From Rhodospirillales bacterium (lineage in GTDB: Bacteria > Pseudomonadota > Alphaproteobacteria > Rhodospirillales > GLO-3), in NCBI GenBank assembly GCA_003354135.1, contig PIVK01000016.1, forward strand, positions 2,224 through 66,223: a stretch of DNA of 64,000 nucleotides, read 5' to 3'. The stretch's first letter is position 1. Every line of letters begins with the position of its first letter. The translations under genes were made by a program, and so were the position numbers. This document shows, one piece after another, positions 3,051 to 63,866 of this stretch. The notes below the pieces were generated by a model. That model made no database searches and was not told where the DNA came from. It saw only the letters and a list, made by a program, of their open reading frames with translations.

Positions 3051-3913
3051 GCACCGGGCTTTCCGACCGGATCGGAAATTTTTTTATCGAGGCTTGTTTC
3101 GCTGAGCTCGACGCCCTCAAGCCGGGAAACGTTCACCGATACAGCGAAGGCCACGGCATGTCCGTCGCCGACTTTGAACGAAGTGCCATAGCCGCCGCCC
3201 CCGCCCTGGCGGCGCCCGGGGCCTCGGTCGGCCGGCGCATCGTTACGGCGGTCGAGAAGACACGCGTCGCCGCCGGCTGCAACACCAACCTGGGGATCAT
3301 CCTTCTCGCCGCCCCCCTGGTCCATGGGGCGTTGCTGGATGCCGGCGCCACCTGCCTGGTGGACAGGGTTGCGCGGACTCTTGCCGAGCTTACAGTGAAC
3401 GATGCCGAGTTGGCCTATGACGCCATCCGTTTGGCCGATCCCGCCGGTATGGGCGAAAGCAAGCGTCACGACATCCGTCACACCCCGACAGTTAACCTGC
3501 GCCGGACAATGGAGGCGGCGGCGGATCATGACCTGATCGCGCGCCAGTACGCCAACGGCTTTGCCGAGGTGATGGGCTTCGGCTGCTCGCGCGCCGTCGA
3601 GGCGGATGCTCTCTGGGGACCGGGACGATGGACGGCCGTCGCCGTATTCCTCGGTTTTCTCGGACGTTTCGCGGACACCCATGTCGCCCGCAAGTTCGGA
3701 GACGCATCCGCTGAACGTCTGCGGGAGCGCGCCAGACCCTATGACAGCCAGCTGATGGAAAGCCAAAACCCGGAGAATCTCGAAGCCGATCTGCTGGCGT
3801 TCGATGGATCGTTGAAGGATGATGGAATTAATCCGGGGACGTGCGCTGATTTAACAGTCGCAAGCTTGCTTGCGCGTCGTCTTGGCAATATGATAAACAA
3901 GGGTTATTACTAG
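3047..3913 (+). CDS. triphosphoribosyl-dephospho-CoA synthase (CitG/MdcB) family protein
   Basis: ORF 3047..3913. The N-terminus (FIEACFAELDALKPGNVHRYSEGHGMSVADF...NTNLGIILL) is typical of the CitG-like family found in H4MPT clusters. Confidence 0.7.
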   Translation: MSTGLSDRIGNFFIEACFAELDALKPGNVHRYSEGHGMSVADFERSAIAAAPALAAPGASVGRRIVTAVEKTRVAAGCNTNLGIILLAAPLVHGALLDAGATCLVDRVARTLAELTVNDAELAYDAIRLADPAGMGESKRHDIRHTPTVNLRRTMEAAADHDLIARQYANGFAEVMGFGCSRAVEADALWGPGRWTAVAVFLGFLGRFADTHVARKFGDASAERLRERARPYDSQLMESQNPENLEADLLAFDGSLKDDGINPGTCADLTVASLLARRLGNMINKGYY

Positions 3914-3975
3914 TTGGGGAAGGAAGGCGTGGGTGAACTCATACCTGAAATTCTCCAACATGGTAGTAGCTTGAG

Positions 3976-4040
3976 CTATCCGTCAACCGATCCAGCCTTT
4001 GTCTTTCTTCAGGGGGATGCTGAAAACGAGAAGATAGTTC
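3976..4040 (+). promoter_or_regulatory. conserved bipartite element, copy A (upstream of fae)
   Basis: Box 1 is TCCGTCAACCGATCCA (3979-3994). Box 2 is GGATGCTGAAAACGAGAAGATAGTT (4015-4039). Both recur at 15/16 and 24/25 identity upstream of xoxF (16175-16190 and 16208-16232). Confidence 0.6.
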
Positions 4041-4129
4041 ACACACAGTGAACGGAACTGCCAGGGCTCCTTTTCGGTGTTTTTGAACGGGATTACTTTG
4101 GGTGTATATAAACCTAGGGAGGAATGAAA

Positions 4130-4642
4130 ATGGCTAAAGTTACCGGCGTACTGGTTGGTGAATCCTTGGTTGGCGATGGGAACGAAGTCGCTCATATCGA
4201 TTTGCTTATTGGCCCACGGGGCAGCGCTGCCGAGACCGCGTTTTGTAACGCCTTGACCAACAACAAGGATGGTTTCACAAGCCTCTTGGCGGTTATTGGC
4301 CCGAATCTTTTGTGCAAACCGGCCACCGTGATGTTCAACAAGGTGACTATCAAGGGTGCGGGACAAGCCGTGCAGATGTTTGGCCCGGCCCAGCGTGCCG
4401 TAGCCATGGCTGTTGCCGATAGCGTCAAGGACGGTACCATCCCAGCCGACGAAGCCGACGACCTGTTTATCTGCGTTGGCGTATTCATCCACTGGGAAGC
4501 CACGGACGACAAAAAGATTCAGGACTACAACTACGAAGCTACCAAGTCCGCGATCCAGCGCGCCATGAGCGGTCAGCCGACCACACAGGACATGTTGGCT
4601 CAGATGGGCTCTACCGCCCATCCGTTTGCCGCCGCTGATTGA
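4130..4642 (+). CDS. fae: formaldehyde-activating enzyme
   Basis: ORF 4124..4642. The sequence [32 protein letters not shown]... is the canonical Fae N-terminus. GGAGGA at 4115-4120 favours the ATG at 4130. Confidence 0.93.
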
Positions 4643-15587: not shown

Positions 15588-15953
15588 ATGAAATCACCCC
15601 TGCGATTGGCATTCGCCCTGCTTCTTGTCTACGGAACCGCGGCCGCCGCGCCCGGCGACGCCATCGCCGATGATAAGGAAAACGACTTTCCGACGGAAGC
15701 GCGCGCGGAATTCGTTTATGGCTGCATGGTTGCAAATGGCCAGACACCGGAAATGCTCAGGAAATGTTCTTGCAGCATTGATTATATCGCATCCGTTATT
15801 CCCTACGAAAAATACATTCAGATGGAGACGACCATACGGTTGCAACAGATTCCTGGGGAACGTGGGGGCCTCTACCGTGGAAATTCGTGGGCTAAAAGCC
15901 TGGTCGAGGAATTGAACAATGCGCAAGCGGAATCGACCCTCAAATGTTTCTGA
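15588..15953 (+). CDS. small secreted cysteine-containing hypothetical protein
   Basis: The signal peptide is MKSPLRLAFALLLVYGTAAAAPG. The mature part has 4 Cys (YGCMV, RKCSCS, LKCF). Confidence 0.55.
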   Translation: MKSPLRLAFALLLVYGTAAAAPGDAIADDKENDFPTEARAEFVYGCMVANGQTPEMLRKCSCSIDYIASVIPYEKYIQMETTIRLQQIPGERGGLYRGNSWAKSLVEELNNAQAESTLKCF

Positions 15954-16109
15954 GGCCGAGGGGGCGCGAACGCGCGCTCATCCTTCAAAAGGCGTTCGGG
16001 TAAAAAATGGGTTGCCATGGAGATCAAATAAAATATAGTATCGAGTCCGTGTAGGGGTTCTTTAAGCAGGGAGAGAAGAGCATTAAATTTTTTAAGCCAG
16101 CACTTTCAA

Positions 16110-16135
16110 TGTACATGTGAGTTTCTGTACATGTG
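16110..16135 (+). promoter_or_regulatory. direct repeat TGTACATGTG-N6-TGTACATGTG upstream of xoxF
   Basis: Perfect 10-mers sit at 16110-16119 and 16126-16135, about 195 nt upstream of the xoxF ATG. An AT-rich tract precedes them. Confidence 0.5.
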
Positions 16136-16171
16136 GCGCCGATTAATTTAATGGTTGCCCCGTAGCTGGGA

Positions 16172-16233
16172 CTGTCCGTCAACCGGTCCAATCGGCAAAT
16201 CGTGGTTGGATGCTGAAAACGAGAAGATGGTTT
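16172..16233 (+). promoter_or_regulatory. conserved bipartite element, copy B (upstream of xoxF)
   Basis: The boxes are TCCGTCAACCGGTCCA (16175-16190) and GGATGCTGAAAACGAGAAGATGGTT (16208-16232). They match copy A upstream of fae. Confidence 0.6.
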
Positions 16234-16328
16234 CATAAAGCCATGTGCTTGTCCTTATTGAGGGGTGCTTCAATAAGAAAAAGCGTGTTTGGCTTTTCGT
16301 TTTTCACCTTAATAAGGGAGGCGAACTG

Positions 16329-18191
16329 ATGAAGCTGTTTTGGAAAACAATGTTAGCCGGCGCAATAGTGTTTACGTTGCCTGGCGTGGCTTCGGCTAAT
16401 GATGAATTGGCCGCCCGCCAAGCTAATCCTGACGAGTGGGCACAGCCCAATCTTAATTTCTCGGCAACGCGTTACAGCCCGTTGACTCAGATCAACAATA
16501 AGAATGTCAAAAAGCTGAGAGTGGCTTGGAGCTTCTCGACCGGCGTGTTACGCGGTCATGAGGGGGGGCCCCTGGTTATCGGCGATACCTTGTACATACA
16601 TACCGCATTCCCAAACAAGGTGTTCGCTCTTGACCTCAAAAACGAGGGCAGAATCTTATGGGAGTACAGGCCCAGGCAGGATCCAACGGTCCCCGGGGTT
16701 ATGTGCTGCGATACCGTCAACCGCGGTCTCGCCTATGCCGGGGGCAAGATATTCCTCTACCAGGCCGACACCACGCTGGTGGCGATTAACGCCAAGACCG
16801 GCAAGAAGGTGTGGTCGATGGTCAACGGCAATCCTAAGGCGGGTGCGACCGGTACCAACGCCCCGCACGTGTATAAGGACAAGGTGTTTGTCGGTATTTC
16901 GGGTGGCGAGTTCGGCGTCCGTGGTTACATGACTGCCTACAACATCGACACCGGCAAGCTGGTCTGGCGCGGTTATTCCATGGGACCGGACAAGGACACC
17001 CTGATGAGCGCCAAGACCACCCATATGGGCAAGTCCGTGGGTAAGAATTCCGGCATCAACACCTGGAAGGGCGATCAATGGAAGATCGGCGGCGGCACCA
17101 CTTGGGGGTGGTATGCCTATGATCCAAAAGAAAACCTGATGTACTATGGAACGGGCAACCCCAGCACCTGGAACCCGGTTCAACGCCCGGGCGACAACCG
17201 CTGGTCGATGACCATCTTTGCTCGTGATGTCGACACTGGAATGGCCAAGTGGGTCTACCAGATGACCCCCCACGACGAATGGGACTATGACGGGATCAAC
17301 GAGATGATCCTTGCCGATATCCCTGTCAAGGGTAAGACCCGCAAGGCCCTGGTTCACTTCGACCGTGGCGGCGTTGGTTACACGCTTGACCGCGTGACGG
17401 GTGAGTTGCTGGTGGCGGAAAAGTTCGACCCCGCCGTCAACTGGCTGACCCACGTAGATATGAAGACCGGCCGCCCGCAAGTGGTGTCTAAATACTCGAC
17501 CGAGCAGAATGGCGAGGACGTGAACAGCAAGAACATTTGCCCGGCTGCCCTTGGTTCCAAGAATCAGGGACCGTCGTCGTACTCTCCGCGCACCAACCTG
17601 TTCTACATCTCGGGTAACCATGTGTGCATGGACTACGAGCCGTTCAAGGTGTCCTACACCGCCGGTAGCGCTTATGTCGGCGCGACCTTGAACATGTATC
17701 CTGCCCCAGGCGGCACGGATCTCGGGCGGTTTACCGCTTGGGACGCCGGCACCGGCAAGATCGCGTGGACCAACCCCGAGCCTTTCTCGGTGTGGAGCGG
17801 CAATCTGGCGACAGCCGGTGACGTTGTCTTCTACGGAACTCTTGAAGGGTATTTGAAGGCCGTTGACGCCGCCACTGGGCGTGAACTTTATCGTTTCAAG
17901 ACTCCGTCTGGAATCATTGGCAACCCCAACACCTGGATGCACAATGGCAAGCAATACATCGGCATTCTCTCCGGTGTTGGCGGCTGGGCCGGTGTCGGCG
18001 TGGGTGTCGGCATGATGGACTCCGAAGATATGGCCGCTGGCTGGCATAAAGCCGTTCATCCCGGGCGGGAGACGCCTAAAGGCGCGGATGCGATCGATAC
18101 CGCCGCTCTCGGCGCGGTCGGAGCCTACAAGGGCCTGACAAACTTTACGCGGGCAGGTGGTGTCCTGACCGTGCTTACCCTGGACGATTAA
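16329..18191 (+). CDS. xoxF: PQQ-dependent methanol/ethanol dehydrogenase, lanthanide-type XoxF
   Basis: ATG 16329 follows AAGGGAGG. A signal peptide is present. The vicinal Cys pair appears in GVMCCDTV. The WDYDG motif carries Asp at codon 17289-17291, whereas MxaF has Ala there. Confidence 0.92.
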
Positions 18192-18256: not shown

Positions 18257-18345
18257 GCAAGAAACTGGAAACGGTGGGGCTTGACTGTTTAGAGCCCGGC
18301 ACGATTTTCGGATTATTAGCTTCAAGAAAAAAGGAGTCCGATTCA

Positions 18346-18843
18346 ATGTTTCTGAAGAAACATGGCCTCATGGCCGTAGCCCTTGGCATGGCGCTGGTTC
18401 TTGCCACATCTGTCTTCGTTCCCGCGAAGGCCGCCGAGGAAGAGGGGGAAAAACCCTATCGCATCGTTGATGGGAAGGTCGATTTTGGGACTTACAACGG
18501 TTATCGGCGATACCATAATTCCTGTCATTCATGCCACGGTCCCGGCGCAATGGGCAGTTCCTTCGCCCCGGCGCTGGTTGAATCCTTGCGCGCGATCGAT
18601 GAAAGCATGTTCTGGGATGTGGTGGTCAATGGCCGCATCAACGGCGTTATCGGCGGCGCGAGAGACATAAAAGCCCTGGACTTGTCGGCAAACTCCGCCA
18701 ATCCGCTGGTCATGCCCTCTTTTCATAACGATCCAAACGTTATGGAATACCTTGAAGACATCTATGCCTACGTGAAAGCGCGCTCCGATGGTGTCATTGG
18801 CGGCGGTCGCCCACCTCACCTTCCTAAGGAAAAGGATGACTAA
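18346..18843 (+). CDS. xoxG: c-type cytochrome (XoxG-like electron acceptor)
   Basis: ATG 18346 follows AAAAGGAG. A signal peptide is present. There is a single CHSCH heme-binding motif. Confidence 0.8.
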   Translation: MFLKKHGLMAVALGMALVLATSVFVPAKAAEEEGEKPYRIVDGKVDFGTYNGYRRYHNSCHSCHGPGAMGSSFAPALVESLRAIDESMFWDVVVNGRINGVIGGARDIKALDLSANSANPLVMPSFHNDPNVMEYLEDIYAYVKARSDGVIGGGRPPHLPKEKDD

Positions 18844-18886
18844 TGGCCGAAGCCGGGCGAAATCATGGCATAAGGCGATAGCTTCC

Positions 18887-19744
18887 ATGCTTGGGAGGTT
18901 TCTTTGTAGGATAGGAATACTAGGCATAGGAGCCACCCTGGCGTGCCTTGTTCTTCCGCTGGACGGCGGTGGCGCGGTTCATGCTGCGCAGCCGAGCCGG
19001 GAAACACAAATCACCCGCTTTCTGCGGGTCTGCGCCGATCCAAACAATCTTCCCTTCTCCAATAATAAGGAGGAGGGCTTCGAGAACAAGATCACAAAGT
19101 TGATCGCCGACGAACTGGAGCGGCCCATTCGCTACACTTGGTGGCCCCAGACCATCGGGTTTGTCCGCAATACTCTACGTCTGCGCCGTTGCGATCTGGT
19201 CGCGGGCATCGCCACCGTCAACGAGACCGTTCAAAATACCAACCCGTACTACCGTTCCGTCTACACCATGGTTTACCGGAGCAATTCGGGCCTGAAAGCG
19301 ACCACCTTGTCGGATCCGGCCATCAAGAACACTCGAATTGGAGTCATTGCCGGAACGCCGCCGGCGACGCTGATGGTATTTTATGATTTGATGGATAATA
19401 TGACGTCCTATCACAGGACCGTGGATACTAGGTTTTTTTCGCCATCGAACCAAGCCATCTCCGATGTGGCCGAGGGAAAGATCGACATCGCCCTCGTCTG
19501 GGGGCCGGTCGCCGGATACTTCGTCAAACAACAAAACGTTCCGCTCACCGTTGTTCCCCTGCTTAACGAGAAGAAGGGTGTGCGGTTGGACTTCCGGGTT
19601 TCCATGGCCGTGCGCTTCAGGGAGCCCGAATGGAAAAGGCTGATTAATCGAACCCTTCGACGGCTGCAGCCGAAGATCAATGAAATTCTCAAGTCGTACG
19701 CAATACCTCTTCTCGACGAGAGGGGGCGTTTGATAACAGACTGA
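18887..19744 (+). CDS. xoxJ: MxaJ/XoxJ-like periplasmic binding protein
   Basis: LRVCADPNNLPFSNNKEEGFENKI is typical of the quinoprotein-associated SBP_bac_3 family. The start (18887 or 18836) is uncertain. Confidence 0.75.
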   Translation: MLGRFLCRIGILGIGATLACLVLPLDGGGAVHAAQPSRETQITRFLRVCADPNNLPFSNNKEEGFENKITKLIADELERPIRYTWWPQTIGFVRNTLRLRRCDLVAGIATVNETVQNTNPYYRSVYTMVYRSNSGLKATTLSDPAIKNTRIGVIAGTPPATLMVFYDLMDNMTSYHRTVDTRFFSPSNQAISDVAEGKIDIALVWGPVAGYFVKQQNVPLTVVPLLNEKKGVRLDFRVSMAVRFREPEWKRLINRTLRRLQPKINEILKSYAIPLLDERGRLITD

Positions 19745-19755
19745 ACGAGTTGGTA

Positions 19756-20397
19756 TTAATCAAGATGTGTGGAAATGGCGTGGGACAGCTCGCCGAGTTT
19801 TTCCTCATCCTTTACCGGTCGTTCGCACACATACTGAATCATTTTCTCGCGATCCTCGAAGATGCGCGCTTGCGTGTTGATGGCGTGGCTGAGCTCTTTG
19901 AACTTGTCCTCATCGACAGCGGGATCCTGAGACATCCGGTCAAATTCAAGCATCCGTTCTTCGATCTGTTTGGCGCGGATACGTTGGTGGCGTGTGAACC
20001 TTCTGATTCCCTCGACCATCGTCCGGCGCTTGCCGTTTAGGGTCTCAAGCACACCGTTGAACAGCATGGTCAGCTGTTGATTTTTATCCTCTTTCTTTAA
20101 TGTCTTGGCGAAGGCCGCGATTTCGTTCGCGGCTTTTTCGGTCGTCATCGTGCTATCCGTCAATCGCTTCACAAGGGTAGCCAGGGGCTGTTCACGACGC
20201 CACTTGTCTTCCATGCCATCGACCGATGGGCCGTCCCAGACCACCGCCGCCGAAACTGTCGGCACGAAAGCCTGAATGCAGGGCCAATCCGGATCCTGAT
20301 TCATTTGGGCCGTGGAGGTTCCGGTGGCGAAACCACAAAAGAATATCCCCGTGACCAGGGCAAAAAGAGCAGAGCGTGGAATCATGATGATAATCAT
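19756..20397 (-). CDS. exported hypothetical protein (last gene of the PQQ-associated ABC operon)
   Basis: The hydrophobic N-terminus is MIIIMIPRSALFALVTGIFFCGFA. The C-terminal half looks coiled-coil and has an internal ELSHAI(N/S)T repeat. Confidence 0.5.
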   Translation of the reverse strand: MIIIMIPRSALFALVTGIFFCGFATGTSTAQMNQDPDWPCIQAFVPTVSAAVVWDGPSVDGMEDKWRREQPLATLVKRLTDSTMTTEKAANEIAAFAKTLKKEDKNQQLTMLFNGVLETLNGKRRTMVEGIRRFTRHQRIRAKQIEERMLEFDRMSQDPAVDEDKFKELSHAINTQARIFEDREKMIQYVCERPVKDEEKLGELSHAISTHLD

Positions 20398-20429
20398 CCA
20401 ATAAACAAAAGGCCGACCCGGAATTACCC

Positions 20430-21233
20430 TCACGTATCCTGTTTTCGGGCCATGAAACCACGCCCCGGGTCATAACCGTAAACAGCGATACCCAGAAACA
20501 AGATAGCGACCGCCGATACATAGACAAGGGAATACAGGTTCAATTGACCGTAAAGGGAAAAACGGATCAACTCAACGGCATGAGTGAACGGATTGTACGA
20601 GCTGATGTTGAAAAGAGAAATGCTGGAATCACGGATCTTCCACAAGGGATAAAGTGCGGAGGAAGCAAAGAACATGGGAAAAATAACAAAATTCATCACC
20701 CCGGCGAAGTTCTCAAGCTGACGGATTATGGACGACAGCATCAAGCCTATGGCGCCCAGCATGAAGCCCGAGATGAACATCGCCGGCAGCGCCGTGATGT
20801 ATCCGATGGGTGGCAACTGAACCTCCCAGAACCACGCCACGAGGAGGAATACATAGGCCTGAAGGATGGAAATGAACGTGCTGGCGATCAGGCGGCAGGT
20901 CAGCAGATACCAGCGCGGCAAGGGACTGACCAACAGAACCCGCATGCTGCCCATTTCTCGGTCGTACACCATGGAAAGGGAGCTTTGCATGCCGTTGAAA
21001 AGCTGGATCATGGCGACAAGCCCCGGCGCGATGTAGACTTCGTAGAGAATGTATGTCTCGTAAGGCGGTATGATCGAAACGCCAAGAACCGAACGAAAAC
21101 CGGCGGCAAAAATGAAAAGCCAAATCAGCGGTCGAACCAGGGCGCCCATGAACCGTTGACGTTGGTGCAGAAACCGCAGTCCTTCACGGATGATGATGCC
21201 GGCCAGGGCGCGATAGTAATGGCTGGCGTTCAC
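20430..21233 (-). CDS. ABC-2 type transporter permease
   Basis: It has six predicted TM segments and a 4-nt overlap with the ATPase gene. Confidence 0.8.
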   Translation of the reverse strand: MNASHYYRALAGIIIREGLRFLHQRQRFMGALVRPLIWLFIFAAGFRSVLGVSIIPPYETYILYEVYIAPGLVAMIQLFNGMQSSLSMVYDREMGSMRVLLVSPLPRWYLLTCRLIASTFISILQAYVFLLVAWFWEVQLPPIGYITALPAMFISGFMLGAIGLMLSSIIRQLENFAGVMNFVIFPMFFASSALYPLWKIRDSSISLFNISSYNPFTHAVELIRFSLYGQLNLYSLVYVSAVAILFLGIAVYGYDPGRGFMARKQDT

Positions 21234-33586: not shown

Positions 33587-33634
33587 GTCCTATTCGGACA
33601 TAGGGTCTAAGTCCTATTCGGACATAGGGTCTAA
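33587..33634. repeat. perfect 24-bp tandem duplication forming hairpins between convergent genes
   Basis: The unit GTCCTATTCGGACATAGGGTCTAA occurs at 33587-33610 and again at 33611-33634. The first copy lies within the palindrome AGACCCCATGTCC-TATTC-GGACATAGGGTCT. Confidence 0.85.
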
Positions 33635-36602: not shown

Positions 36603-36688
36603 CATTTCATTCCGTTTCTGTCCGGCTGGACGACGCATCCCCCCGCTTCCGTCACGGCCAGGACGGCGGCCGCGAAGTCCCAGACCTT
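36603..36688. repeat. 86-bp duplicated fragment of the IMPase-family gene (second copy 38932-39017)
   Basis: 82 of 86 nt are identical to 38932-39017, which is internal to CDS 38715..39644. The two copies are in direct orientation. Confidence 0.9.
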
Positions 36689-38714: not shown

Positions 38715-39644
38715 TCACCGTTTCTTGTCCCATGCCTCGATCATGTCTTCAACGCGTTTCTTGTCATCGGGATCAAGCTTGCCGAACTTCCGAAAGAAGG
38801 CCTCCCTTACGGCTTTTTCATCGGGATCTGCCGGCTCGTCGAGCAGATCATCCGGTGTCGCCTCCAGGGCCGTCGCGAACTCCATGATTTCCCGGTTCTC
38901 CGCCATCAGGACGCCGGTATGGAGCCGGTCCCATTTCATCCCGGTTCCGTCCGGCTGGACGACGCATCCCCCCGCTTCCGTCACGGCCAGGGCGGCGGCC
39001 GCGAAGTCCCAGACCTTCCCTCCCCGGCAGTTGACGTATAGGGCTGCATGTCCCCGCAGCAACGCCACGGCGCTCCCGACGGCGGTGGCAAGGGCGCGGT
39101 TCGCCAGGCTGGCGGCGACGATCTCCGCCATCCAGGCGAATTCGTTCGTTCGCAGGTGTGCATTGAGTTCGAAAAGGGCGATCCCGTCCGAAAGGCGTTG
39201 CCCCTGGTCCAGGACGACGCGACGGCCGTCCAGCCATGTGCCGCCACCCCGCCAAGCGGTAAGCGTCGATCCGAGGGCAGGCTGGTGCAGAACCCCCGCC
39301 ACCGGTTCACCACGGTCCACGAACGCCAGACTGAGGCCCCATTCGGGACACCCGTGGACGAAAATGTTCGTTCCGTCGAGTTCGTCTACGGCGATGTACG
39401 TTTCCGGCAGAACCGCGTCATTGTCCTGCTCTTCCATGACCAGGGGGATGGACGGAAAAGCGGCGGCGAGTTTGCCTGAAAGCACGCGGTGGGATTCTTC
39501 ATCCGCGGCCGTCACCAGATCGGCCGGAGCCTTCTTCCGCACGTCAAGCGGCCCGCCCCGCATATCCAGCAACAGCTCCCCGGCATCGCATGCAAACCCC
39601 CGAAGCGTTTCCGCGATTCCGGGAAGGTCTCGGTTTCTCCTCAT
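38715..39644 (-). CDS. inositol monophosphatase/CysQ-family phosphatase with acidic C-terminal tail
   Basis: The motifs are DLVTAADEESH, AVDELDGTNIF and WDFAAAALAVTEAGG. The start at MRRNRDL (39644) follows GGGAG. Confidence 0.75.
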   Translation of the reverse strand: MRRNRDLPGIAETLRGFACDAGELLLDMRGGPLDVRKKAPADLVTAADEESHRVLSGKLAAAFPSIPLVMEEQDNDAVLPETYIAVDELDGTNIFVHGCPEWGLSLAFVDRGEPVAGVLHQPALGSTLTAWRGGGTWLDGRRVVLDQGQRLSDGIALFELNAHLRTNEFAWMAEIVAASLANRALATAVGSAVALLRGHAALYVNCRGGKVWDFAAAALAVTEAGGCVVQPDGTGMKWDRLHTGVLMAENREIMEFATALEATPDDLLDEPADPDEKAVREAFFRKFGKLDPDDKKRVEDMIEAWDKKR

Positions 39645-39956: not shown

Positions 39957-41084
39957 TCAGTTTCTGGGATAGTTTTGCACGGGCCTCTTTAGTTTATTGA
40001 GGTGAGACCAAGGCAAATGACCACCGTGCTGAAGCCTGCCAACAACGATTCCAGGTGCAATTCCCTGCTGATCGGCAAATGCACGTATAACCCGCTCACT
40101 ACGTGGCGATCCTTCTACGAACGTTGCCCATGCTTTACTTGGGATAAGAGTATTGGATGCCCACTCATCAGCCTCAGCCTCAGCCTCAGCCTCAGCCTCA
40201 AAGTCACAGCCATCGCCGTCGGCCCCCCCATCAACAAAAATACTCTTCTTGCTATGCAGCAGAATATGCCCAGCCTCGTGGAAGAAGCTGAACCAGAGAT
40301 GATCATCCGACTTGTGCCGCGCACTCAGCTGAATGACGGCCTTTCGGGGTGAGACCCACCACGCAGCACCACTGAGCGCGGTCTTGGGAAGCTGCGGCAC
40401 CAGTGCGAGGGTAACGCCTGCCTTATTACATAGCTCAACAGTCCGCTGAAGAGCTTCGTCAACCGGTTCGCGCGTTAAACCCCGGATTTTTCGGGCGGCT
40501 TGCTTAAATCGGCTCTCATTATAATCTGCACAATCTTGGCGTTCAGCTTCAAGTTCGCCAAGCCGCCGCCACGTAGCCAAAGCGACCTCGCTGCTATCGA
40601 AGCTTGGGGAATGCCGATAGGCCACATTCGCAAAACTATAGCGCGCGACCCAAGCATCGATCGATCCTACTCCAAAGAACGCAAGCAACTTCGATACGGC
40701 ATCGACATCCGATTCAGGCTGCTGAATACATCCGCGATTCATCAGATCACGAACCGGGAAGGCCTTGCTCCACTCCGCCGATGCAGCCGCACATTCTGCC
40801 TCGGTCTCCCGGGCCCTATGAAGCTGGTAGTCAGTTTCGATTCCAAGCCAGATACTGGCATCAACGCCGAGCACCTTCTCAAATTGGAGTGCCGTTTCCG
40901 GTTCAAGCGAGGCCTTACCCGCGATGATTTCGCTGATCAGCTTGGGAGAACGCCCACACCTGCGCGCAAATTCCGCATGCGAAATTCCCTGGACATCCAA
41001 ACGCTCCTCCAAAACCCACCCCGGTGGAATCGCATAGTCTGGATTATATTTTTTTGTAGCTGTGGCCATAGTCCTCTCCTCCAT
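39957..41084 (-). CDS. XRE-family HTH antitoxin fused to ImmA/IrrE-type zinc peptidase
   Basis: The N-terminal HigA-like HTH is GISHAEFARRCGRSPKLISEIIAG. The C-terminal HEXXH is FFHEAGHILLH. It lies immediately downstream of higB. Confidence 0.75.
   Translation of the reverse strand: MEERTMATATKKYNPDYAIPPGWVLEERLDVQGISHAEFARRCGRSPKLISEIIAGKASLEPETALQFEKVLGVDASIWLGIETDYQLHRARETEAECAAASAEWSKAFPVRDLMNRGCIQQPESDVDAVSKLLAFFGVGSIDAWVARYSFANVAYRHSPSFDSSEVALATWRRLGELEAERQDCADYNESRFKQAARKIRGLTREPVDEALQRTVELCNKAGVTLALVPQLPKTALSGAAWWVSPRKAVIQLSARHKSDDHLWFSFFHEAGHILLHSKKSIFVDGGADGDGCDFEAEAEAEAEADEWASNTLIPSKAWATFVEGSPRSERVIRAFADQQGIAPGIVVGRLQHGGHLPWSHLNKLKRPVQNYPRN
40171..40200. repeat. hexanucleotide microsatellite (GCCTCA)x5 inside the XRE-ImmA CDS
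   Basis: There are five perfect copies. On the minus strand they encode (EA)5. Confidence 0.9.
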
Positions 41085-42307: not shown

Positions 42308-42784
42308 CGTTTGCCGCAGAACACAATAGGGCATGTCGGCGTGACCGTCCCACTCGCTGACATGTCGCGCTACAACCTTCAAAGGGTGCCTCGATGGGAG
42401 CCGGTCGGGTCAAAAACAATACAAGGTTGGGCCATTTCATTGAGAACCAGGGCCTAACCCAAATAACCTGAAGGTCATAGCGCCTATGCCTCTGAAAACG
42501 TCGGGTTCAGATTGAGCAACCCGAAGTATGGCAATTCGGATTTCCGTTGATCAGTCATCCTGGAAATTTCCATTTGATGTCCGGCTTTTCGGCGGACGCC
42601 CATTTGTCGTCGATTTCAACCGGGCAGTCCAGGTCCGCTTGCGCAACAAAGCCCCTTCCGGACGGCATTCGCTTTCGAATGGATGGGGATGGATTTTTGG
42701 CGGGGTTCGTGGATTAATTGTGCCCGCAGACTTTGTAAGCATTCGGAACGTGTTCGAATTTTTGATTTTGGGGAGCCTTTCGTA

Positions 42785-45700
42785 ATGATTTCGGCAAGAG
42801 GAATTCTGGTTGGTGCCTTTTTGGGGGTCTTCACCACAATTTTCCTTTCCGCGGAGGCGGTCGCGGATTTCCGGGTGGAGGCATTCTCCCCTCAGGGAAA
42901 TGTCCGTGACGTTCGGCAGGTCCATGTCCGGTTTTCCGAGGAGGCCGTCGCCTTTGGCGATCCGCGGGACCGAGATGCCCCGTTCACGACCGACTGCCCG
43001 CAAACAGCCCAATCGCGCTGGGTCGACGGCAGGAACTGGGTCCATGAGTACAAGGAGCAGCTTCCCGGCGGGGTGCGCTGTGTTTTCAACGCCCGACCGA
43101 GTTTGAAATCGTTGGCGGGTCAGCCCCTGACCGGGGAGAGCGCGTTCATCTTTTCTACGGGGGGCGCGACACCGCTCGCGGTCTATCCCGGCGAGGGGTT
43201 CAGGGACATCTCTCCCGATCAGGTCTTTATCCTGGCACTCGATGCGCCGGCCGATCCCTCGTCCGTCGAGCAGCATGCCTATTTCGAGGTGGAGGGCATC
43301 GCAAGCCGGGTGGAGGTCTCCGTCCTTCCGGCCGGGAAAACGTCCGAGATCGCAGAAGATATCTACCGCTCGGTCTGGCCGGAGCAAAGCGGGTCGGTCG
43401 AGGAAACGGCCAAAATCGCGGAAGGGATCTACCTTTTTCGCCGCATGAGGGAAAAGCCCAAGATCGGCCTGCGGGCCAAACAGAGATTCCCGCCCGGCAG
43501 GAAGATCAGGCTGATATGGGCGCGGGACATAGAAACGCCGGGCGGTGTGCCCACGGGTCGGGATGAACACCGGGCTTTCGACTACACAAGTGCGCCGCCG
43601 TTCACCGTGAGCGTTCGCTGTCGGCGAAAAGACGAGTCCGAAGGGTGTGACCCCTTAGGCGAAATTCGGCTCGTCTTTTCATCGTTTGTCGATGCGGCGC
43701 AGGTCGCGGAGATCAAACTGATGGGCGGGCCGAGGGGGAAACGGGTGGCGGAACCCAGGAGCAAGGGCGCCACGCGCCACGCGGTGTTCCATCCACCGTT
43801 TCCACCGAACACGGAATTCCGGGTGGTAATTCCGGAGAACCTGCGGAGCATGGACGGTCGCAGTCTCCCCGGAGGGGGAAGCGGAACGGTCGAAATCGCC
43901 ACCGGTGACTTTCCACCCCTCGCCAAGTTTTCCGGCCGTTTCGGTATTTTGGAACGAGAGGACAGCCCGGTCCTCCCGGTCACCATCCGAAACCTTGAGC
44001 CCGACCTGAAGGTCAGATCCGAAGTCAGCTCTTCCCCGGCCTACGGACTGCGTCATTGGCTGCAGGACGCCATTCGGGATCTTAGCGGCAGGACTCTTCG
44101 GCTGTCACCTGACCAGAGCGGGCACGCCTCGGAACAGCGCCGGGAAATCGTGCGCTACATGCAGAAGCTCCATGCAGTCGATGGCGTCGCGCAGTATCGA
44201 AACAGCCTGATCGGCGGCCAGGAAACGGGGCCGTCGGCGGAGCGGCTCAGGATTCCTCCCCCCAAAGGCAGAAACCGGACCGAAGTGGTCGGCATTCCCC
44301 TGGAGGACCCTGGTTTCTACATCGTCGAAATCGCGAGCCGAAATCTGGCGGAGCAGCTGCTGAACAGGCCCGACCGGCCGGTGGAGGAACCGCCAAAATA
44401 CATGTACGCCGCGACCGGCGCGTTGGTGACCAACATGTCCGCGCACTTGAAACGCGGGCGGGAGAACGCGTTGATTTGGGTGACCCGCCTGAACGACGCA
44501 GAACCGGTGCAGGGCGCAAAGGTCTCGGTCCTCAATTGCCGGGGCGAAGAGATTTGGATCGACGAAACCAATGCCGACGGCGTCGCGATCTCCAAGACGC
44601 CCTTACCGGAAACCCGGTGCAGTTTGCGGCCCTACCAATCCGGTCTGTTCGTTTTTGCCGAACACCGTGGCGACGTCACCTTCGCCCATTCCTCTTGGGA
44701 CGACGGAATAGAGGTCTGGCGGTTTCCGGGAACACGCCATTCGACGGCCAACAGGCAAACACCGCTGATCGGTCATACCGTATTGGGCCGCTCCCTTTTC
44801 CGGGCGGGCGAGACCGTATCCATGAAGCATTTCCTGCGGCGGCACCGGAGCAACGGCATGGATGTTCCCGATACCCTCGAGGCGTGGAACTCCATGGAAA
44901 TCATCCACCGGGGTTCGGGTCAGAAGTTTCAATTCAATCTCGACTGGGACGCGCTGGGGATCGCGCAGACCACCTGGACAATTCCGAACGCGGCCAAGCT
45001 CGGCACCTACACGGTTTCGTTCAAGAAGAAGAAAAAGAAACGCCGCTGGAAAACCATCATAACCGGGAGTTTCGACGTCCAGGAATTCAAGGTGCCTCTG
45101 ACCAGAGGAACCATCAAAGGACCGGAGACCAAGCTGGTCCGGGCCACGTCATTCCCGCTAGATTTCGGCGTCCGCTATCTTGCCGGTGGAGGGGCCGGCG
45201 GACTGCCGGTGAAACTGCGAAGCCAGTTTACCGAGGCCCGTTCCGTCTTTCGATCCAAGGGATACCCCGGTTTTGCCTTCAACGCCGGAGCCCCGCGCAA
45301 GGACCCGTGGAAACCGGAACGCCGGACACTGGCCCATACGGCGCTGAAATTGGATGACGCGGGGACCGGTCGATACACTTTGTCGGATATTCCCGCCTCC
45401 GATAAGGCGGTCAACGTGCTCACGGAAATGAGCTACCGCGATCCCAACGGGAACATTCGTACGGTCGTTCACCGCGAAACCGTCCATCCGTCCCGCTGGA
45501 ACGTCGGCATCAAGGCGAAGAGCTGGATTCCGAAAGACGGCGAACTCTCCTTTACCGCGGTACTCCTGGATTTGGACGGCACGCCCGTGCCGGGCAAGAG
45601 CCTCGGGATTGATCTCGTCAAGCAAGAACACCTATCCCACAGGAAGAAGCTTGCCGGCGGGATCTATGGTTATGAACATGAGGTGAAACTGACGCCCCTG

Positions 45701-48538
45701 GGGCCGTTTTGCGAGGGAACAACGGACGACGATGGACGTCTTACGTGCGCGAAACGCGTCGAGCACTCCGGTAAAATCTACGGTGTCGCTCGGGTCGATA
45801 CCCCCGAGGGCATAGAGCAGGTTACACATGCCGGCGCTTGGGTGCCGGGGAAGGACGCATGGTGGTTCAGGGCCTCGGACACGGACCAGATGGATGTCCT
45901 GCCCGAGAAACGGAGTTACGAGCCCGGAGACACCGCGCGCTTTCAGGTCCGCATGCCGTTCCGGAAGGCTCGTGCCCTGGTTACCGTGGAGCGCGAGGGC
46001 GTTCTCGATTACTTCCTTCAGACGCTCGACGGGAATGCGCCCATTGTCTCGGTGCCCATCCGCGATACCTTTGCCCCCAATGTCTATGTGGGGGTTCTCG
46101 CGGTGCGGGGGCGGGTGGCCGACATCAAGCCCACCGGCCTCGTGGACCTTGGGCGGCCCGCATTCAAGTTGGGCATGGCCGAGATCGATGTCGGATGGAG
46201 ACGCCATCGGCTGGATGTTGTCGTAGAAGCCGAGCGCGAAGTCTATGAAGTTCGCGATAAGGCAACCGTGCGTGTTCGCGTAAAACCGAGGAACGGCAAT
46301 CCTCTTCCAAAGAACGCCGAAGTCGCGGTTGCCGCAGTCGACGCAGGCCTACTGGAATTGAAACCCAATAACAATTGGGATCTCCTCGGCACCATGATGG
46401 GACCGCGTTCCAACGAGACCGTTACCGCCACCGCTCAGATGCGGGTCGTTGGAAAGCGGCATTATGGTCAGAAGACGCGCCCCGACGGTGGCGGTGGCGG
46501 ACGGGGCACGGTCCGCGAGGTGTTCGACTCACTGTTGTTGTGGAAAGGAAGGGTGGCGCTCGACGAGAACGGAGAGGCGGTCGTCCGGATTCCGCTCAAC
46601 GATTCCCTGACGCGGTTCAAGATCGTCGCGGTCGCGTCGGCCGGAGAGGACAAATTCGGCACCGGATCGACGTCGATCCGGACTACGCAGAGTCTAATGA
46701 TCTTTCCGGGAATTACGCCCCTGGTGCGCGAGGGCGATCGGATTATCACGCCGTTCACGCTTCGCAATACGACGGACGATCCCATGGATCTGTCCGTATC
46801 CCTTTCAGTGCAGGGGATGGAGCAGGCACCGTCTCCGCGCGACGTCACGGTTCCGGCCAAGGACAGCGTGATGGTTTCTTGGGATATGACGATCCCATTC
46901 GATCAACGTGTTCTTCGGTATCATCTCGAAGTCCGCAAAGGGGACCAGATCGCCGATGCCCTTTCGATAGAGCAGAAGGTCAAACCGGCCGTCCCCGTGC
47001 GCGCCCTGCAGGGCACGTTTGCCCAGTTGACCGAGCCCTTCACGATGACGGCACGCATTCCCGACGACGCCGTGCCGGGGCGCGGCGGCATGAAGATCGA
47101 GGCCAGTACCAGCTTGGTCGACGTGGGTTTGAGCGGGGTGGTCGATTATATGCGGAGCTACCCATATAGCTGTTTCGAACAGCAGGCATCCGTGGCCGTT
47201 GCACTCGGCGATGCCGCCCGGTGGGAATCCCTGATGAGCAGGCTCGCCCTGTATCTGGATGGTAACGGGCTGATCAAGTATTTCCCCCGCATGCGGCGCG
47301 GAAGCGTGGTGTTGAGCGCCTATATCCTGGCTATTGCCCATGAGCGCGGCTGGGCCGTTCCGGACGGTGAGCGCCAGCGGGTTCTTCGGGGATTGCGGAA
47401 CTTCGTGACCGGGCGTTTGCACCGCGTCGACATCTTCGTCGAGGAATACATGAGCGTCGTCAAGCTGCAGGCGATCGAGGTCTTGAGCCGCTACGAGATG
47501 GCATCCCCGGACCTTCTTGAGAGCATCGAAATCCATCCCCGCGAGCTTCCAACCTCGGCCTTGATGGATTGGCTCAACATCCTTTACCGCGTGACGGGGA
47601 TTGCCGATGCCGATCGTCTGAGGAGCGAAAGCGAGAACCTCCTTCGGTCGCGTATTCGCTACGACGGCCGCATCATGCGGTTCACCACAAGTGAACGCGA
47701 CGACCTGTGGTGGCTCATGACCGACGGTGACTCCAATGCGATCCGTTTTCTTCTCACGGCAATGGAGTTCGGCCTTTGGTCCGACGACCGGGCGCGCCTC
47801 CTGGAGGGAGCCCTATCGCGACAGCAAAAAGGACATTGGAAGCTGACGACCTCCAATGCCTATGGCGCGGTCGCGTTGCGGAAATTCGCTGCCGCATTCG
47901 AGAGAGAGACGCTCGACGGACTGACCCGCATCCGCTTCGGGCCCGAGACAGCGGACGTCCCTTGGCAGGACGGGAAGACGAAAGGCGAAGCCCTGCTTCC
48001 CTGGGGCGGGATCGGAGAACGGAGGGACCTTGAGATGCGTCACGAGGGGAAGGGGGCCCCCTGGGTCTCGGTGCTGAGCATGGCGGCCGTTCCCTTCAAG
48101 GTCCCCGTCGACGCCGGCTTCGCCGTCCGCAAGACGATAACACCCATCACCCGTAAATCGGAAGACAGGTGGAGCGTAGGAGACGAAATCCGGGTCCATC
48201 TGGAAATCGATGCTCCGGCCGACATGACATGGGTGGTCATCGATGATCCGGTCCCGGCCGGCGCCGCAATGATGGGGAGCGGCCTCGGCGGTGAAACCGT
48301 CATTGCCCAGCAGGGGGAAGAGACCAAGGGACGCGCCCGTCTCGCGTTTAAGGAGCATGCCTTTGACGGCATGCGAGCCTATTTTTCCTTCGTTCGTCAA
48401 GGGACATGGTCTTTGGATTACACCTATCTCTTGAACGCTGCGGGAACCTTCCAAATGCCTCCGACCCGGGTCGAGGCTTTGTACAAACCCGAAATGTTCG
48501 GTGTTCTGCCCAATGAGACATTTGTTGTCGAGGAATAG
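42785..48538 (+). CDS. bacterial alpha-2-macroglobulin family protein (thioester-containing)
   Basis: It is 1917 aa from ATG 42785 and has a signal peptide. The thioester motif CFEQ lies at 47171-47182. pbpC follows directly. Confidence 0.88.
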   Translation: MISARGILVGAFLGVFTTIFLSAEAVADFRVEAFSPQGNVRDVRQVHVRFSEEAVAFGDPRDRDAPFTTDCPQTAQSRWVDGRNWVHEYKEQLPGGVRCVFNARPSLKSLAGQPLTGESAFIFSTGGATPLAVYPGEGFRDISPDQVFILALDAPADPSSVEQHAYFEVEGIASRVEVSVLPAGKTSEIAEDIYRSVWPEQSGSVEETAKIAEGIYLFRRMREKPKIGLRAKQRFPPGRKIRLIWARDIETPGGVPTGRDEHRAFDYTSAPPFTVSVRCRRKDESEGCDPLGEIRLVFSSFVDAAQVAEIKLMGGPRGKRVAEPRSKGATRHAVFHPPFPPNTEFRVVIPENLRSMDGRSLPGGGSGTVEIATGDFPPLAKFSGRFGILEREDSPVLPVTIRNLEPDLKVRSEVSSSPAYGLRHWLQDAIRDLSGRTLRLSPDQSGHASEQRREIVRYMQKLHAVDGVAQYRNSLIGGQETGPSAERLRIPPPKGRNRTEVVGIPLEDPGFYIVEIASRNLAEQLLNRPDRPVEEPPKYMYAATGALVTNMSAHLKRGRENALIWVTRLNDAEPVQGAKVSVLNCRGEEIWIDETNADGVAISKTPLPETRCSLRPYQSGLFVFAEHRGDVTFAHSSWDDGIEVWRFPGTRHSTANRQTPLIGHTVLGRSLFRAGETVSMKHFLRRHRSNGMDVPDTLEAWNSMEIIHRGSGQKFQFNLDWDALGIAQTTWTIPNAAKLGTYTVSFKKKKKKRRWKTIITGSFDVQEFKVPLTRGTIKGPETKLVRATSFPLDFGVRYLAGGGAGGLPVKLRSQFTEARSVFRSKGYPGFAFNAGAPRKDPWKPERRTLAHTALKLDDAGTGRYTLSDIPASDKAVNVLTEMSYRDPNGNIRTVVHRETVHPSRWNVGIKAKSWIPKDGELSFTAVLLDLDGTPVPGKSLGIDLVKQEHLSHRKKLAGGIYGYEHEVKLTPLGPFCEGTTDDDGRLTCAKRVEHSGKIYGVARVDTPEGIEQVTHAGAWVPGKDAWWFRASDTDQMDVLPEKRSYEPGDTARFQVRMPFRKARALVTVEREGVLDYFLQTLDGNAPIVSVPIRDTFAPNVYVGVLAVRGRVADIKPTGLVDLGRPAFKLGMAEIDVGWRRHRLDVVVEAEREVYEVRDKATVRVRVKPRNGNPLPKNAEVAVAAVDAGLLELKPNNNWDLLGTMMGPRSNETVTATAQMRVVGKRHYGQKTRPDGGGGGRGTVREVFDSLLLWKGRVALDENGEAVVRIPLNDSLTRFKIVAVASAGEDKFGTGSTSIRTTQSLMIFPGITPLVREGDRIITPFTLRNTTDDPMDLSVSLSVQGMEQAPSPRDVTVPAKDSVMVSWDMTIPFDQRVLRYHLEVRKGDQIADALSIEQKVKPAVPVRALQGTFAQLTEPFTMTARIPDDAVPGRGGMKIEASTSLVDVGLSGVVDYMRSYPYSCFEQQASVAVALGDAARWESLMSRLALYLDGNGLIKYFPRMRRGSVVLSAYILAIAHERGWAVPDGERQRVLRGLRNFVTGRLHRVDIFVEEYMSVVKLQAIEVLSRYEMASPDLLESIEIHPRELPTSALMDWLNILYRVTGIADADRLRSESENLLRSRIRYDGRIMRFTTSERDDLWWLMTDGDSNAIRFLLTAMEFGLWSDDRARLLEGALSRQQKGHWKLTTSNAYGAVALRKFAAAFERETLDGLTRIRFGPETADVPWQDGKTKGEALLPWGGIGERRDLEMRHEGKGAPWVSVLSMAAVPFKVPVDAGFAVRKTITPITRKSEDRWSVGDEIRVHLEIDAPADMTWVVIDDPVPAGAAMMGSGLGGETVIAQQGEETKGRARLAFKEHAFDGMRAYFSFVRQGTWSLDYTYLLNAAGTFQMPPTRVEALYKPEMFGVLPNETFVVEE

Positions 48539-50645: not shown

Positions 50646-50874
50646 CGTGTCTCCTCGGCATTCGTTTCGAGGCAGCTACAAACGAAACCGCTTGATTGAA
50701 GTTCAACAGTTTGGCACCATATCTGGAGCTAGGAATCCTGTAATTTTCAATATGTTGAGGATCGGCTGAGTAACAGGGGCAACCCCCCGGGCATTCATGC
50801 GTTGCTGTGCTGACGGACGAGGTTGGGCAGGAGTGGGATGTTGGGTGCACCTTGGACATGGAGTCGGTTGCCCA

Positions 50875-55103: not shown

Positions 55104-55179
55104 TGGCTGGGGCGGGAGGACTCGAACCTCCGAATGCCGGTACCAAAAACCGGTGCCTTAACCACTTGGCTACGCCCCA
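55104..55179 (-). tRNA. tRNA-Gln (anticodon TTG)
   Basis: The manual cloverleaf is as follows. The acceptor is TGGGGCG/CGCCCCA. The anticodon arm is CCGGT-TTTTGGT-ACCGG. The T arm is GGAGG-TTCGAGT-CCTCC. The 3' end is an encoded GCCA. It is close to E. coli tRNA-Gln. Confidence 0.9.
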
Positions 55180-63564: not shown

Positions 63565-63866
63565 GCCGTTGTTATGCGTGCAAGGACTATCGGCAAATTC
63601 TGGAAAATCGGGGGCTCATGGCCTTCATGAGCAAGAAGGGAGACTGCTGCGACAACGCTCCCATGGAAAGCTTCTTTGGATCGCCCATGGAAAGCTTCTT
63701 TGGATCGAATGTGTCCACCAGACCCGGTTTGGCGACCCGCAAGGAATCCAGGGCCGCCCTGTTCGAATACATTGAGGTGTTCTACAATCGCTGGCGTCTG
63801 CATTCGGGTGGTGGCTACAGGACACCGGCACAGACCTACGCGGAGTTGACCGCCATGGTCGCATAA
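63565..63866 (+). mobile_element. IS3-family transposase (OrfB) C-terminal fragment, degraded
   Basis: KGDCCDNAPMESFFGS...ALFEYIEVFYNRWRLHSGGGYRTP is the end of the rve core. The N-terminal two-thirds are absent. It carries a 24-bp tandem duplication at 63660-63707. Confidence 0.7.

Follow-up and report, generated by a model that had tools for sequence, protein, structure and literature searches.

The window analysed here is a 64,000-nt stretch of contig PIVK01000016.1 (assembly GCA_003354135.1, forward strand, positions 2,224 to 66,223) from a Rhodospirillales bacterium, and it carries two genes of one-carbon metabolism, fae for formaldehyde activation and xoxF for methanol oxidation. Both gene calls, made in an original prediction from the sequence alone, are supported by Pfam: the match of Fae is listed in the table below, and XoxF matches the methanol/ethanol-type dehydrogenases that depend on pyrroloquinoline quinone (PQQ) with an E-value of 1.4e-60. 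The closest named homologues of XoxF are annotated as lanthanide-dependent XoxF5, and xoxF is followed, as is usual in an xoxFGJ cluster, by genes for a cytochrome c and for a periplasmic binding protein. Upstream of both fae and xoxF lies a bipartite element of two boxes, box 1 (TCCGTCAACCGRTCCA, 3979-3994 and 16175-16190) and box 2 (GGATGCTGAAAACGAGAAGATRGTT, 4015-4039 and 16208-16232). The coordinates, the spacers of 20 nt (fae copy) and 17 nt (xoxF copy), the identities of 15/16 and 24/25, and the distances of 91 nt to the fae ATG (4130) and 97 nt to the xoxF ATG (16329) were all reproduced exactly as first reported. Box 2 had no match in 100 dinucleotide-preserving shuffles of the window with up to three mismatches allowed, and a search of the whole window with two models and the filters off returned these two copies only in 64 kb. 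A third site resembling box 1 (20152-20171) is a chance match, which sits in the interior of an opposite-strand open reading frame (ORF), lacks box 2 and scores 11-14 bits under the covariance models. A weak model match at 52443-52512 (15.5 bits) was also rejected, as it falls inside an ORF of 1376 aa.

As judged from conservation and pairing, the element is a folded RNA of ~70 nt, and the two boxes are its conserved loops. The predicted fold comprises an outer helix P1, an asymmetric internal loop and a distal hairpin P2. P1 has a core of CUAUC/GAUAG and an extension of three to five covarying pairs. The internal loop is near-invariant, with CGUCAACCG on its 5' side and GCUG(A/U)AAACGAGAA on its 3' side, and P2, which lies between the boxes, is free in sequence and length. 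The original prediction had seen no obvious hairpin, a view that does not stand: the variable spacer folds into a hairpin of its own, and base pairs join the outer end of box 1 to that of box 2. In the fae copy, P2 begins in the last part of box 1, takes in the whole 20-nt spacer and reaches 4 nt into box 2; the P2 of the xoxF copy is unrelated to it in sequence and keeps the same pairing register. The flanking sequences, previously described as unrelated, are alike for another ~13 nt on the 5' side (GTAGCTKGRRCTRTCC, starting at 3966 and 16162), a stretch that forms the 5' strand of P1. The two A/G differences between the copies are also accounted for by the fold. The one in box 1 falls on the first base of P2 (A-U in fae, G·U in xoxF), and the one in box 2 (4036 versus 16229) falls on a P1 position (U-A versus U·G), with pairing preserved. 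When the xoxF element was folded in isolation, both the minimum free energy structure and the centroid consisted of exactly P1 plus P2.

Comparative analysis revealed extensive covariation in both helices. RNAalifold, run unguided on 12 distinct sequences (alignment A3), predicted P1 and P2, with compensatory changes at 10 of 18 pairs. It also gave a possible three-pair CGU/ACG helix, on which covariation is silent because the positions involved are invariant in those 12 sequences. Over P1 and P2, 93.9% of the cells in A3 can pair, compared to 36-49% once the 3' strands have been slid 1-3 columns out of register; 10 of the 15 pairs changed on both sides, a count reached by none of 500 shuffles. 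In a larger alignment (A4) of 21 distinct copies from the window and metagenomic relatives, which is itself fitted to the covariance model, 13 of 15 pairs covary and 92.7% of the cells pair, against 36-46% after sliding and again with none of 500 shuffles reaching the observed count. Changes on both sides affect four of the eight P1 pairs in A3 and six of eight in A4, and all seven P2 pairs show compensatory changes across the 21 copies. The mismatches tolerated in paired columns are strongly biased, with 35 G·U or U·G wobbles versus four A·C or C·A, which identifies the sense-strand transcript as the folding molecule. Taken with this tolerance of G·U, the covariation in spacer and flanks argues for selection on the fold of the sense-strand RNA and not on a site in duplex DNA.

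The helices vary widely among the copies. The P2 stem reads UCCAA/UUGGA in the window, GUCUGG/CCAGAC at locus L108 and UUUGG/CCGGG in a marine clade, and its closing pair, which is G-C in most relatives, is A-U for fae and G·U for xoxF in the window. Copies found only with the covariance model carry fresh compensatory helices, as in the P1 of the fae copy at L130 (GGCGCAUC/GAUUGCGCC), and the copies before DUF4440 genes at L130 and L132 have a long P2 that bears an insertion. In total, ~23 unpaired loop nucleotides are near-invariant in lineages whose XoxF proteins differ by up to ~30%. The strand CGUCAACCG is identical in all 12 sequences of A3 and elsewhere shows only single-position changes; the 3' side of the loop is invariant in A3 except for one A/U position. 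The sequence GAGAAGAU, which lies outside the pattern used to search the metagenomes, follows all 11 true matches and none of the 12 chance matches.

Exact-protein look-ups with the Fae and XoxF of the window returned no match, and no near-identical partners were found beyond their own contig, the next Fae being 83% identical. P0002, an apparent close relative, was rejected: it is a Fae with an internal duplication, encoded on a 695-nt contig. Relatives of XoxF were found at 87, 86, 81, 80 and 74% identity, on contigs that are syntenic with the window: a small secreted protein is encoded 5' of xoxF, and xoxG, xoxJ, a 210-aa protein and an ABC-2 transporter follow 3'. Copies of the element were reached through this homology, and thus independently of the motif, at L108, L109 and L156 (XoxF ~86-87% identical), in the marine clade at L110-117 (81%) and at L142-145 (XoxF P0168, 71%). 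An alignment of the relatives' regions upstream of xoxF, a check proposed with the original prediction, showed that both boxes are conserved in diverged surroundings. The shared signal first proposed from two copies in one genome is thus kept upstream of xoxF in relatives with XoxF 71-87% identical, and upstream of fae at L130.

A bipartite pattern taken from the conserved parts of the aligned xoxF leaders was used to scan metagenomes and hit 23 loci, 11 true and 12 by chance. A covariance model (R1), built from the 12 sequences of A3, gave the true copies 34.8-89 bits (54-89 outside the marine clade, 35-38 within it) and the chance matches at most 23 bits. R1 also found copies that the pattern had missed, namely the fae copy at L130, the DUF4440 copies at L130 and L132, and the xoxF copies at L142-145 and L156. 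A scan of GTDB with the 17-mer ATGCTGAAAACGAGAAG returned 106 single matches in unrelated phyla, about 70 being expected by chance, and none had box 1 nearby. This 17-mer starts with two lineage-specific bases from the end of P2, where the relatives have ACGCTG, and the relatives were hence out of reach of that scan. Its best match (L024, 24/25 identity) lies in a small minus-strand ORF of a Neorhizobium metagenome-assembled genome and was set aside as chance. No copy was found in a plasmid collection or in viral contigs.

A degenerate tandem copy stands ~85 nt upstream of the main copy in the xoxF leaders of two clades (L108 886-963, L109 126-203 and L110 ~3840-3925). It reads GCGUCCGUCGACCG...CGCUAUAACCAAGAAACCGGCGC and scores 17-22 bits under R1, and L141 (7765-7849) is similar. 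It is either a duplicate in the course of decay or a variant that has diverged; membership of L141 and of the upstream tandem copy at L108 and L109 in the family is possible.

The element occupies a rather fixed place before a limited set of genes. In all 14 leaders examined it shares the strand of the gene that follows and stands 30-122 nt ahead of the ATG, in 12 of them at 78-103 nt, and a strong Shine-Dalgarno sequence of the GGGAGG type stands between the element and the ATG in the leaders that carry it. It precedes xoxF in at least seven sequence groups and fae in two lineages, those of the window and of L130. The other downstream genes encode a secreted DUF4440/SnoaL-like protein (L130 and L132), a lipoprotein of the type I phosphodiesterase family (L123) and a secreted acidic peptide of 46 aa (L130). 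At L130 the order from fae to xoxF is that of the window, with four copies within 13.6 kb. By contrast, the syntenic fae locus of the P0080 lineage, an abundant soil clade with a tetrahydromethanopterin cluster, has no element, which indicates that the motif belongs to particular lineages and does not come with fae in general.

Further features of these neighbourhoods are as follows. The 46-aa ORF at L130 (9933-10073) has a signal peptide and a short, acidic, His/Glu-rich mature part (QDVTGQEHWVEHKDGQDEVKL) with no Pfam match; its product could be a periplasmic metal-binding peptide, or the ORF could be spurious. The fae loci of the P0080 lineage (L146-L155) encode, two genes 3' of fae, a sigma-54-dependent activator with MimR_N, GAF and AAA+ domains, which suggests that a different mode of control, exerted by a protein, governs these pathway genes in that lineage. 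Two proteins without Pfam matches adjoin xoxFGJ in every relative (L108, L110-117, L142 and L156). In the window they correspond to a secreted, cysteine-containing protein directly 5' of xoxF (15588-15953; 112-121 aa) and to a protein of ~210-225 aa 3' of xoxJ (19756-20433, minus strand). The window also encodes tetrahydromethanopterin and methanofuran biosynthesis and an ABC system associated with PQQ dehydrogenases.

Promoter prediction would place the xoxF copy inside the transcribed leader. A sigma-70-like promoter lies ~127 nt upstream of the xoxF copy, so that the element falls within a predicted 5' untranslated region (5' UTR) of ~280 nt. By eye, TTGCCT-16 nt-TATAGG occurs at about the same distance in the L130a, L132a, L127 and L137 leaders (alignment A5). 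With promoter-like sites upstream, the element is predicted to be transcribed and internal to the leader. Downstream, the 3' strand of P1 overlaps competing hairpins in both window copies. In the fae copy this is GUUCAC/GUGAAC at 4037-4053 (reported on the minus strand), and in the xoxF copy, by eye, it is AUGGUUU/AAAGCCAU.

Several signals were also noticed in individual leaders. In the xoxF leader of the window, TGTACATGTG occurs twice (16110-16119 and 16126-16135, 16 nt apart) between the predicted promoter and the element; each copy holds the palindrome TGTACA. The repeated sequence, not seen in the relatives' leaders, is a candidate site for the binding of a protein. The leaders of the small-peptide subgroup contain a hairpin, GAUCGG...CCGAUC, ~75 nt upstream of the element. 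Its loop AUAUCUUCUC is complementary to GAGAAGAUA, that is, to the 3' loop of the element and the P1 strand (L130 9715-9745, L132 minus strand ~975-1005, L127 and L137). In the same subgroup, the P1 5' strand UCUAUC has a potential pairing partner in GAUAGA immediately upstream, and both interactions may be alternative pairings peculiar to these lineages. The motif CCUCC, which is complementary to the Shine-Dalgarno core, is present in 3 of 17 P2 hairpins (L118, L133 and L141), where shuffling gave ~0.5 expected (P ~0.014, post hoc), no more than a hint that some P2 loops may touch the ribosome site.

Table. Coordinates of the two copies of the element and of the associated genes and signals in the window
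Feature	Position	Strand	Basis or remark
fae copy, P1 5' strand UGAGCUAUC	3972-3980	+	Pairs with 4033-4041; RNAalifold; single-sequence fold recovers P1
fae copy, internal loop 5' side CGUCAACCG, core of box 1	3981-3989	+	Conservation
fae copy, hairpin P2, ATCC...GGAT closing pairs, pyrimidine-rich loop	3990-4018	+	Compensatory changes
fae copy, internal loop 3' side GCUGAAAACGAGAA, core of box 2	4019-4032	+	Conservation
fae copy, P1 3' strand GAUAGUUCA	4033-4041	+	Pairs with 3972-3980
fae	4130-4642	+	Pfam PF08714, E 1.8e-70; Shine-Dalgarno GGGAGG 4117-4122
Sigma-70-like promoter TTGCCA-16 nt-TATAGT, 10/12	16012-16039	+	Consensus scan
xoxF copy, P1 5' strand UGGGACUGUC	16167-16176	+	Pairs with 16226-16235, four G·U wobbles
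xoxF copy, internal loop 5' side CGUCAACCG	16177-16185	+	Same as fae copy and relatives
xoxF copy, hairpin P2 GUCCAAUC...GGUUGGAU	16186-16211	+	Stem of 8-9 bp
xoxF copy, internal loop 3' side GCUGAAAACGAGAA	16212-16225	+	Same as fae copy
xoxF copy, P1 3' strand GAUGGUUUCA	16226-16235	+	Pairs with 16167-16176
xoxF (XoxF5-like PQQ methanol dehydrogenase)	16329-18191	+	Pfam PQQ; Shine-Dalgarno GGGAGG 16316-16321
xoxG	18274-18843		3' of xoxF; Pfam cytochrome c
xoxJ	18788-19744		3' of xoxF; Pfam SBP_bac_3

A conserved fold of sense-strand polarity stands at a rather constant position before the starts of one functional gene set. Judging from sequence comparison, the element is very probably a structured, functional, cis-acting leader RNA, and it probably ties the expression of the genes that carry it to one signal. 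With a confidence slightly above even, we favour the full reading in which the loop of this structured leader RNA reads one trans-acting signal and exerts riboswitch-like control. We propose that transcription of fae and xoxF yields 5' leaders that contain this RNA of ~70 nt, and that in relatives a few genes for other exported proteins with a link to methanol oxidation carry it as well. The invariant loop of the RNA would serve as the recognition surface, and all carrier genes would be controlled jointly after transcription has started. The mechanism that we prefer is an ON switch, in which the bound signal would stabilise P1. The C-rich 3' strand of P1 would thereby be freed from pairings with the leader next to the Shine-Dalgarno sequence or from local hairpins, and translation would be allowed; this anti-Shine-Dalgarno role of the P1 3' strand is a preferred guess, not a result. 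The element has several traits of a riboswitch, as the ~23 near-invariant loop nucleotides lie between covarying helices, the terminal hairpin is variable and a tandem copy is possible at L108 and L109. The overlap of the P1 3' strand with competing hairpins in the two window copies, and its complementarity to the ribosome site in the short fae leader of L130, also speak for a switch. As to the signal, it is possible that a small molecule or ion is read, which would make the element a true riboswitch, and to the same tentative degree that a protein or a small RNA is; we give about equal weight to a riboswitch-like sensor and to an operator for a protein or small RNA. The most specific version, the aptamer of a new methylotrophy riboswitch class that directly senses a methanol-oxidation signal and switches on xoxF, fae and the exported accessory proteins, is rather unlikely by our estimate. 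For it, the candidate ligands would be a light lanthanide ion in the cytoplasm, PQQ, or the one-carbon status of formaldehyde and tetrahydromethanopterin.

Several observations weigh against the favoured reading. No expression platform is common to the leaders, since the sequence from the element to the Shine-Dalgarno site differs among lineages; U-tract terminators are absent from most leaders, and no terminator is common to them. Complementarity of the P1 3' strand to the Shine-Dalgarno site is a weak trend (mean z -0.59 over 13 leaders), with a single leader, the short fae leader of L130, individually significant (z -3.2), and base pairing between the purine loop and the region of the translation start was rejected (mean z -0.15, 13 leaders). 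In the 216-nt intergenic region of fae, no recognisable sigma-70 promoter was found within 3850-4140. The 3' loop of the marine clade tolerates an 8-nt all-purine insertion (AAAGAGAAAGAAAGAUAG), which fits a single-stranded tract for a protein or Hfq better than a tight ligand pocket. The invariance of the loop among the metagenome matches is partly imposed by the search pattern, although it is also seen in the copies anchored by XoxF homology. Independent lineages are modest in number (~12 P2 types, apparently in one alphaproteobacterial group), and the regulon list covers the 64-kb window and ~30 short loci. Finally, L141 and the upstream tandem copy at L108 score 17-18 bits under R1, which is the level of chance, and they score highly only under R2, a model trained on both.

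The strongest competitor of riboswitch-like sensing is an operator for an RNA-binding protein or an Hfq-dependent small RNA, which would act on translation or stability with no small-molecule ligand; we regard it as a tentative but serious alternative. The fold is simple, with one internal loop between two helices, and the purine tract of the 3' loop, with its AGA/AAG (A-R-N) triplets and the 8-nt purine insertion of the marine clade, is typical of a single-stranded protein or Hfq site. The leaders share no uniform expression platform, and the complementarity of the upstream loop AUAUCUUCUC to GAGAAGAUA in the L130a, L132a, L127 and L137 leaders indicates that the tract is accessible to pairing partners. 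However, no candidate RNA-binding regulator is encoded near any copy among the neighbourhoods viewed, the ~23 near-invariant unpaired nucleotides exceed what most protein operators need, and the possible tandem copy at L108 and L109 together with the strict closure of P1 are classic traits of aptamers. A module that senses nothing and constitutively stabilises the mRNA or enhances translation of highly expressed methylotrophy genes is improbable. The products of fae and xoxF are among the most abundant proteins of methylotrophs, as such a module would suit, and the arrangement is cassette-like, with a strong GGGAGG-type site in every leader and 78-103 nt to the ATG. But a stabilising hairpin needs structure and not ~23 invariant loop nucleotides, and the predicted promoters ~115-125 nt upstream place the element inside the leader, whereas protective stem-loops usually sit at the 5' end. 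Further identities at the RNA level were rejected. A leader-peptide attenuator encoding MLKTRR (ATG-CTG-AAA-ACG-AGA-AGA-TAG) is specific to this genome and arises from a P2 ending in AT, where relatives have ACG or GTG-CTG-TAA. ANTAR targets have two tandem small hairpins with hexaloops and the RAT target is a ~29-nt fold that overlaps a terminator, whereas the consensus here is one long interrupted helix with a single terminal hairpin and a variable loop. The loops also do not fit the consensus sequences of K-turn, loop E, hammerhead or pistol cores, none of which Rfam finds.

A signal acting on DNA, with box 1 as an activator site, box 2 as part of an unusual promoter and the helices as incidental, is very improbable. 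Such a signal would agree with the strong sequence conservation of both boxes, with the well-known protein regulators of methanol-oxidation genes in model methylotrophs, and with the lack of a recognisable sigma-70 promoter elsewhere in the fae intergenic region. It is at odds with the spacing between the boxes, which ranges from 17 to ~37 nt and is incompatible with fixed promoter geometry, and with the two helices, as covariation at 13 of 15 pairs and the excess of G·U over A·C would not arise from duplex DNA. As the original prediction had noted, neither copy contains a standard -35/-10 hexamer pair. An extended -10 (TGCTATCC) is not present in the window copies and is without the conserved T at its end, and a sigma-54 promoter was dismissed because GG-N10-GC occurs in the xoxF copy only and is missing from fae and the relatives. 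The inference of a shared cis-acting signal for fae and xoxF is thus upheld, with the 5'-UTR version favoured over the activator site plus promoter, and the proposed co-ordination of formaldehyde activation with methanol oxidation is judged correct. Least probable of all is a generic REP- or MITE-like repeat, a recent intragenomic duplication or gene conversion between leaders. The two window copies do share traits that relatives lack, namely the sequence 'GGATGCTG', which results from the A-U or G·U closing pair, and GTAGCT on the 5' side of P1, and some concerted evolution within this genome is likely. A generic repeat had been named as the outcome that would undo the prediction, but the window holds two copies in 64 kb by two models with the filters off, and all copies elsewhere are on the sense strand before the same gene class. 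Moreover, copies with invariant loops have P2 sequences that bear no relation to one another, viral contigs and plasmids have none, and the 106 GTDB 17-mer matches are single, unrelated chance matches. Even jointly, the DNA site and the generic repeat retain only a very small probability.

Similarity searches against Rfam 15 found only a tRNA in the whole window at gathering thresholds. With permissive E-values, six copies (the two of the window and four from related loci) gave noise at E ~0.2 or higher, far below the gathering scores, and the families thus compared include THF-II/folE, NMT1, ZTP and Methylobacterium-1. Literature searches, which included the box sequences and a 224-motif survey and did not cover every journal, found no report of an RNA element associated with xoxF or fae. 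The element is a new RNA family of a known general kind, the cis-regulatory leader RNA, and its gene association is without precedent in Rfam or the searched literature. Its architecture is that of single-internal-loop riboswitch classes such as the NMT1 motif, the xanthine/urate riboswitch of proteobacterial 5' UTRs, in which two helices flank a conserved asymmetric internal loop and the terminal hairpin is variable. This likeness serves as a lead only, as Rfam gives no match and the conserved nucleotides are unrelated. In model methylotrophs, the 'lanthanide switch' is run by the two-component systems MxbDM, MxcQE and MxaB/MxaY, whose response regulators act at promoter DNA. The target is alike, co-ordinated control of xoxF and of downstream formaldehyde handling; however, the signal here would be a leader RNA fold, and no such regulator gene lies beside any copy. 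The 3' loop AAACGAGAAGAUAG (AAAGAGAAAGAAAGAUAG in the marine clade) resembles Hfq and small-RNA sites in being all-purine, A-R-N-like, single-stranded and next to helices, whereas Hfq sites are not known to be set in a covarying two-helix scaffold with a second invariant loop strand (here CGUCAACCG). The THF-II riboswitch (folE motif) is outlined in PMC9180208 as an element of ~60 nt that occurs in Rhizobiales and is associated with folE. Both elements are small, rod-like, alphaproteobacterial 5'-UTR structures with helices joined by conserved loops and a gene tied to one-carbon metabolism. They differ in the loop sequences and in the genes they precede (xoxF, fae and exported accessory genes compared to folE), and they have no similarity in sequence or by covariance model. 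In THF-II the ligand is said to occupy the internal loop.

Away from the element, the window contains four perfect tandem duplications (33587-33634, 51838-51888, 56575-56622 and 63660-63707). The unit is 24 nt in three of them and 27 nt in the fourth, where 24-nt copies are spaced by 27 nt; one is intergenic and three lie in long ORFs. All units are multiples of three and would preserve the frame, and to find four in 64 kb is unusual; recent slippage or errors of assembly could account for them. An 86-nt direct repeat (36603-36688 and 38932-39017) is 95% identical over a distance of 2.3 kb. A HigA-like antitoxin fusion is encoded at 39957-41084, two very large ORFs occupy 42683-48538 (1951 aa, no NCBIfam match) and 50797-54927 (1376 aa), and a tRNA lies at 55107-55179. 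The region of the 86-nt repeat, the antitoxin and the large ORFs may represent an island, of mobile or defence type, without connection to the element. One protein of the window matches TIGR02302 (aProt_lowcomp), which we take to be an alphaproteobacterial family, just under the curated cutoff.

How bacteria set the expression of the lanthanide-dependent XoxF, and how they balance formaldehyde production against its capture by Fae, is only partly understood, and what is known concerns protein regulators in a few model strains. Here, a compact RNA fold marks the xoxF/fae gene set in uncultured Rhodospirillales-like bacteria, including an abundant marine clade, and points to a post-transcriptional layer of control in one-carbon metabolism. 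If the element is a sensor, it would be a candidate genetic part that responds to methanol, formaldehyde or rare earths. Should the novel riboswitch prove true, a widespread group of uncultured marine and terrestrial alphaproteobacteria would possess an RNA-based sensor for the 'lanthanide switch' or for formaldehyde homeostasis. Even if the element does no more than bind a protein, it defines a regulon, in which the DUF4440 protein, the phosphodiesterase-family lipoprotein and the small acidic peptides are candidates for methanol or lanthanide handling.

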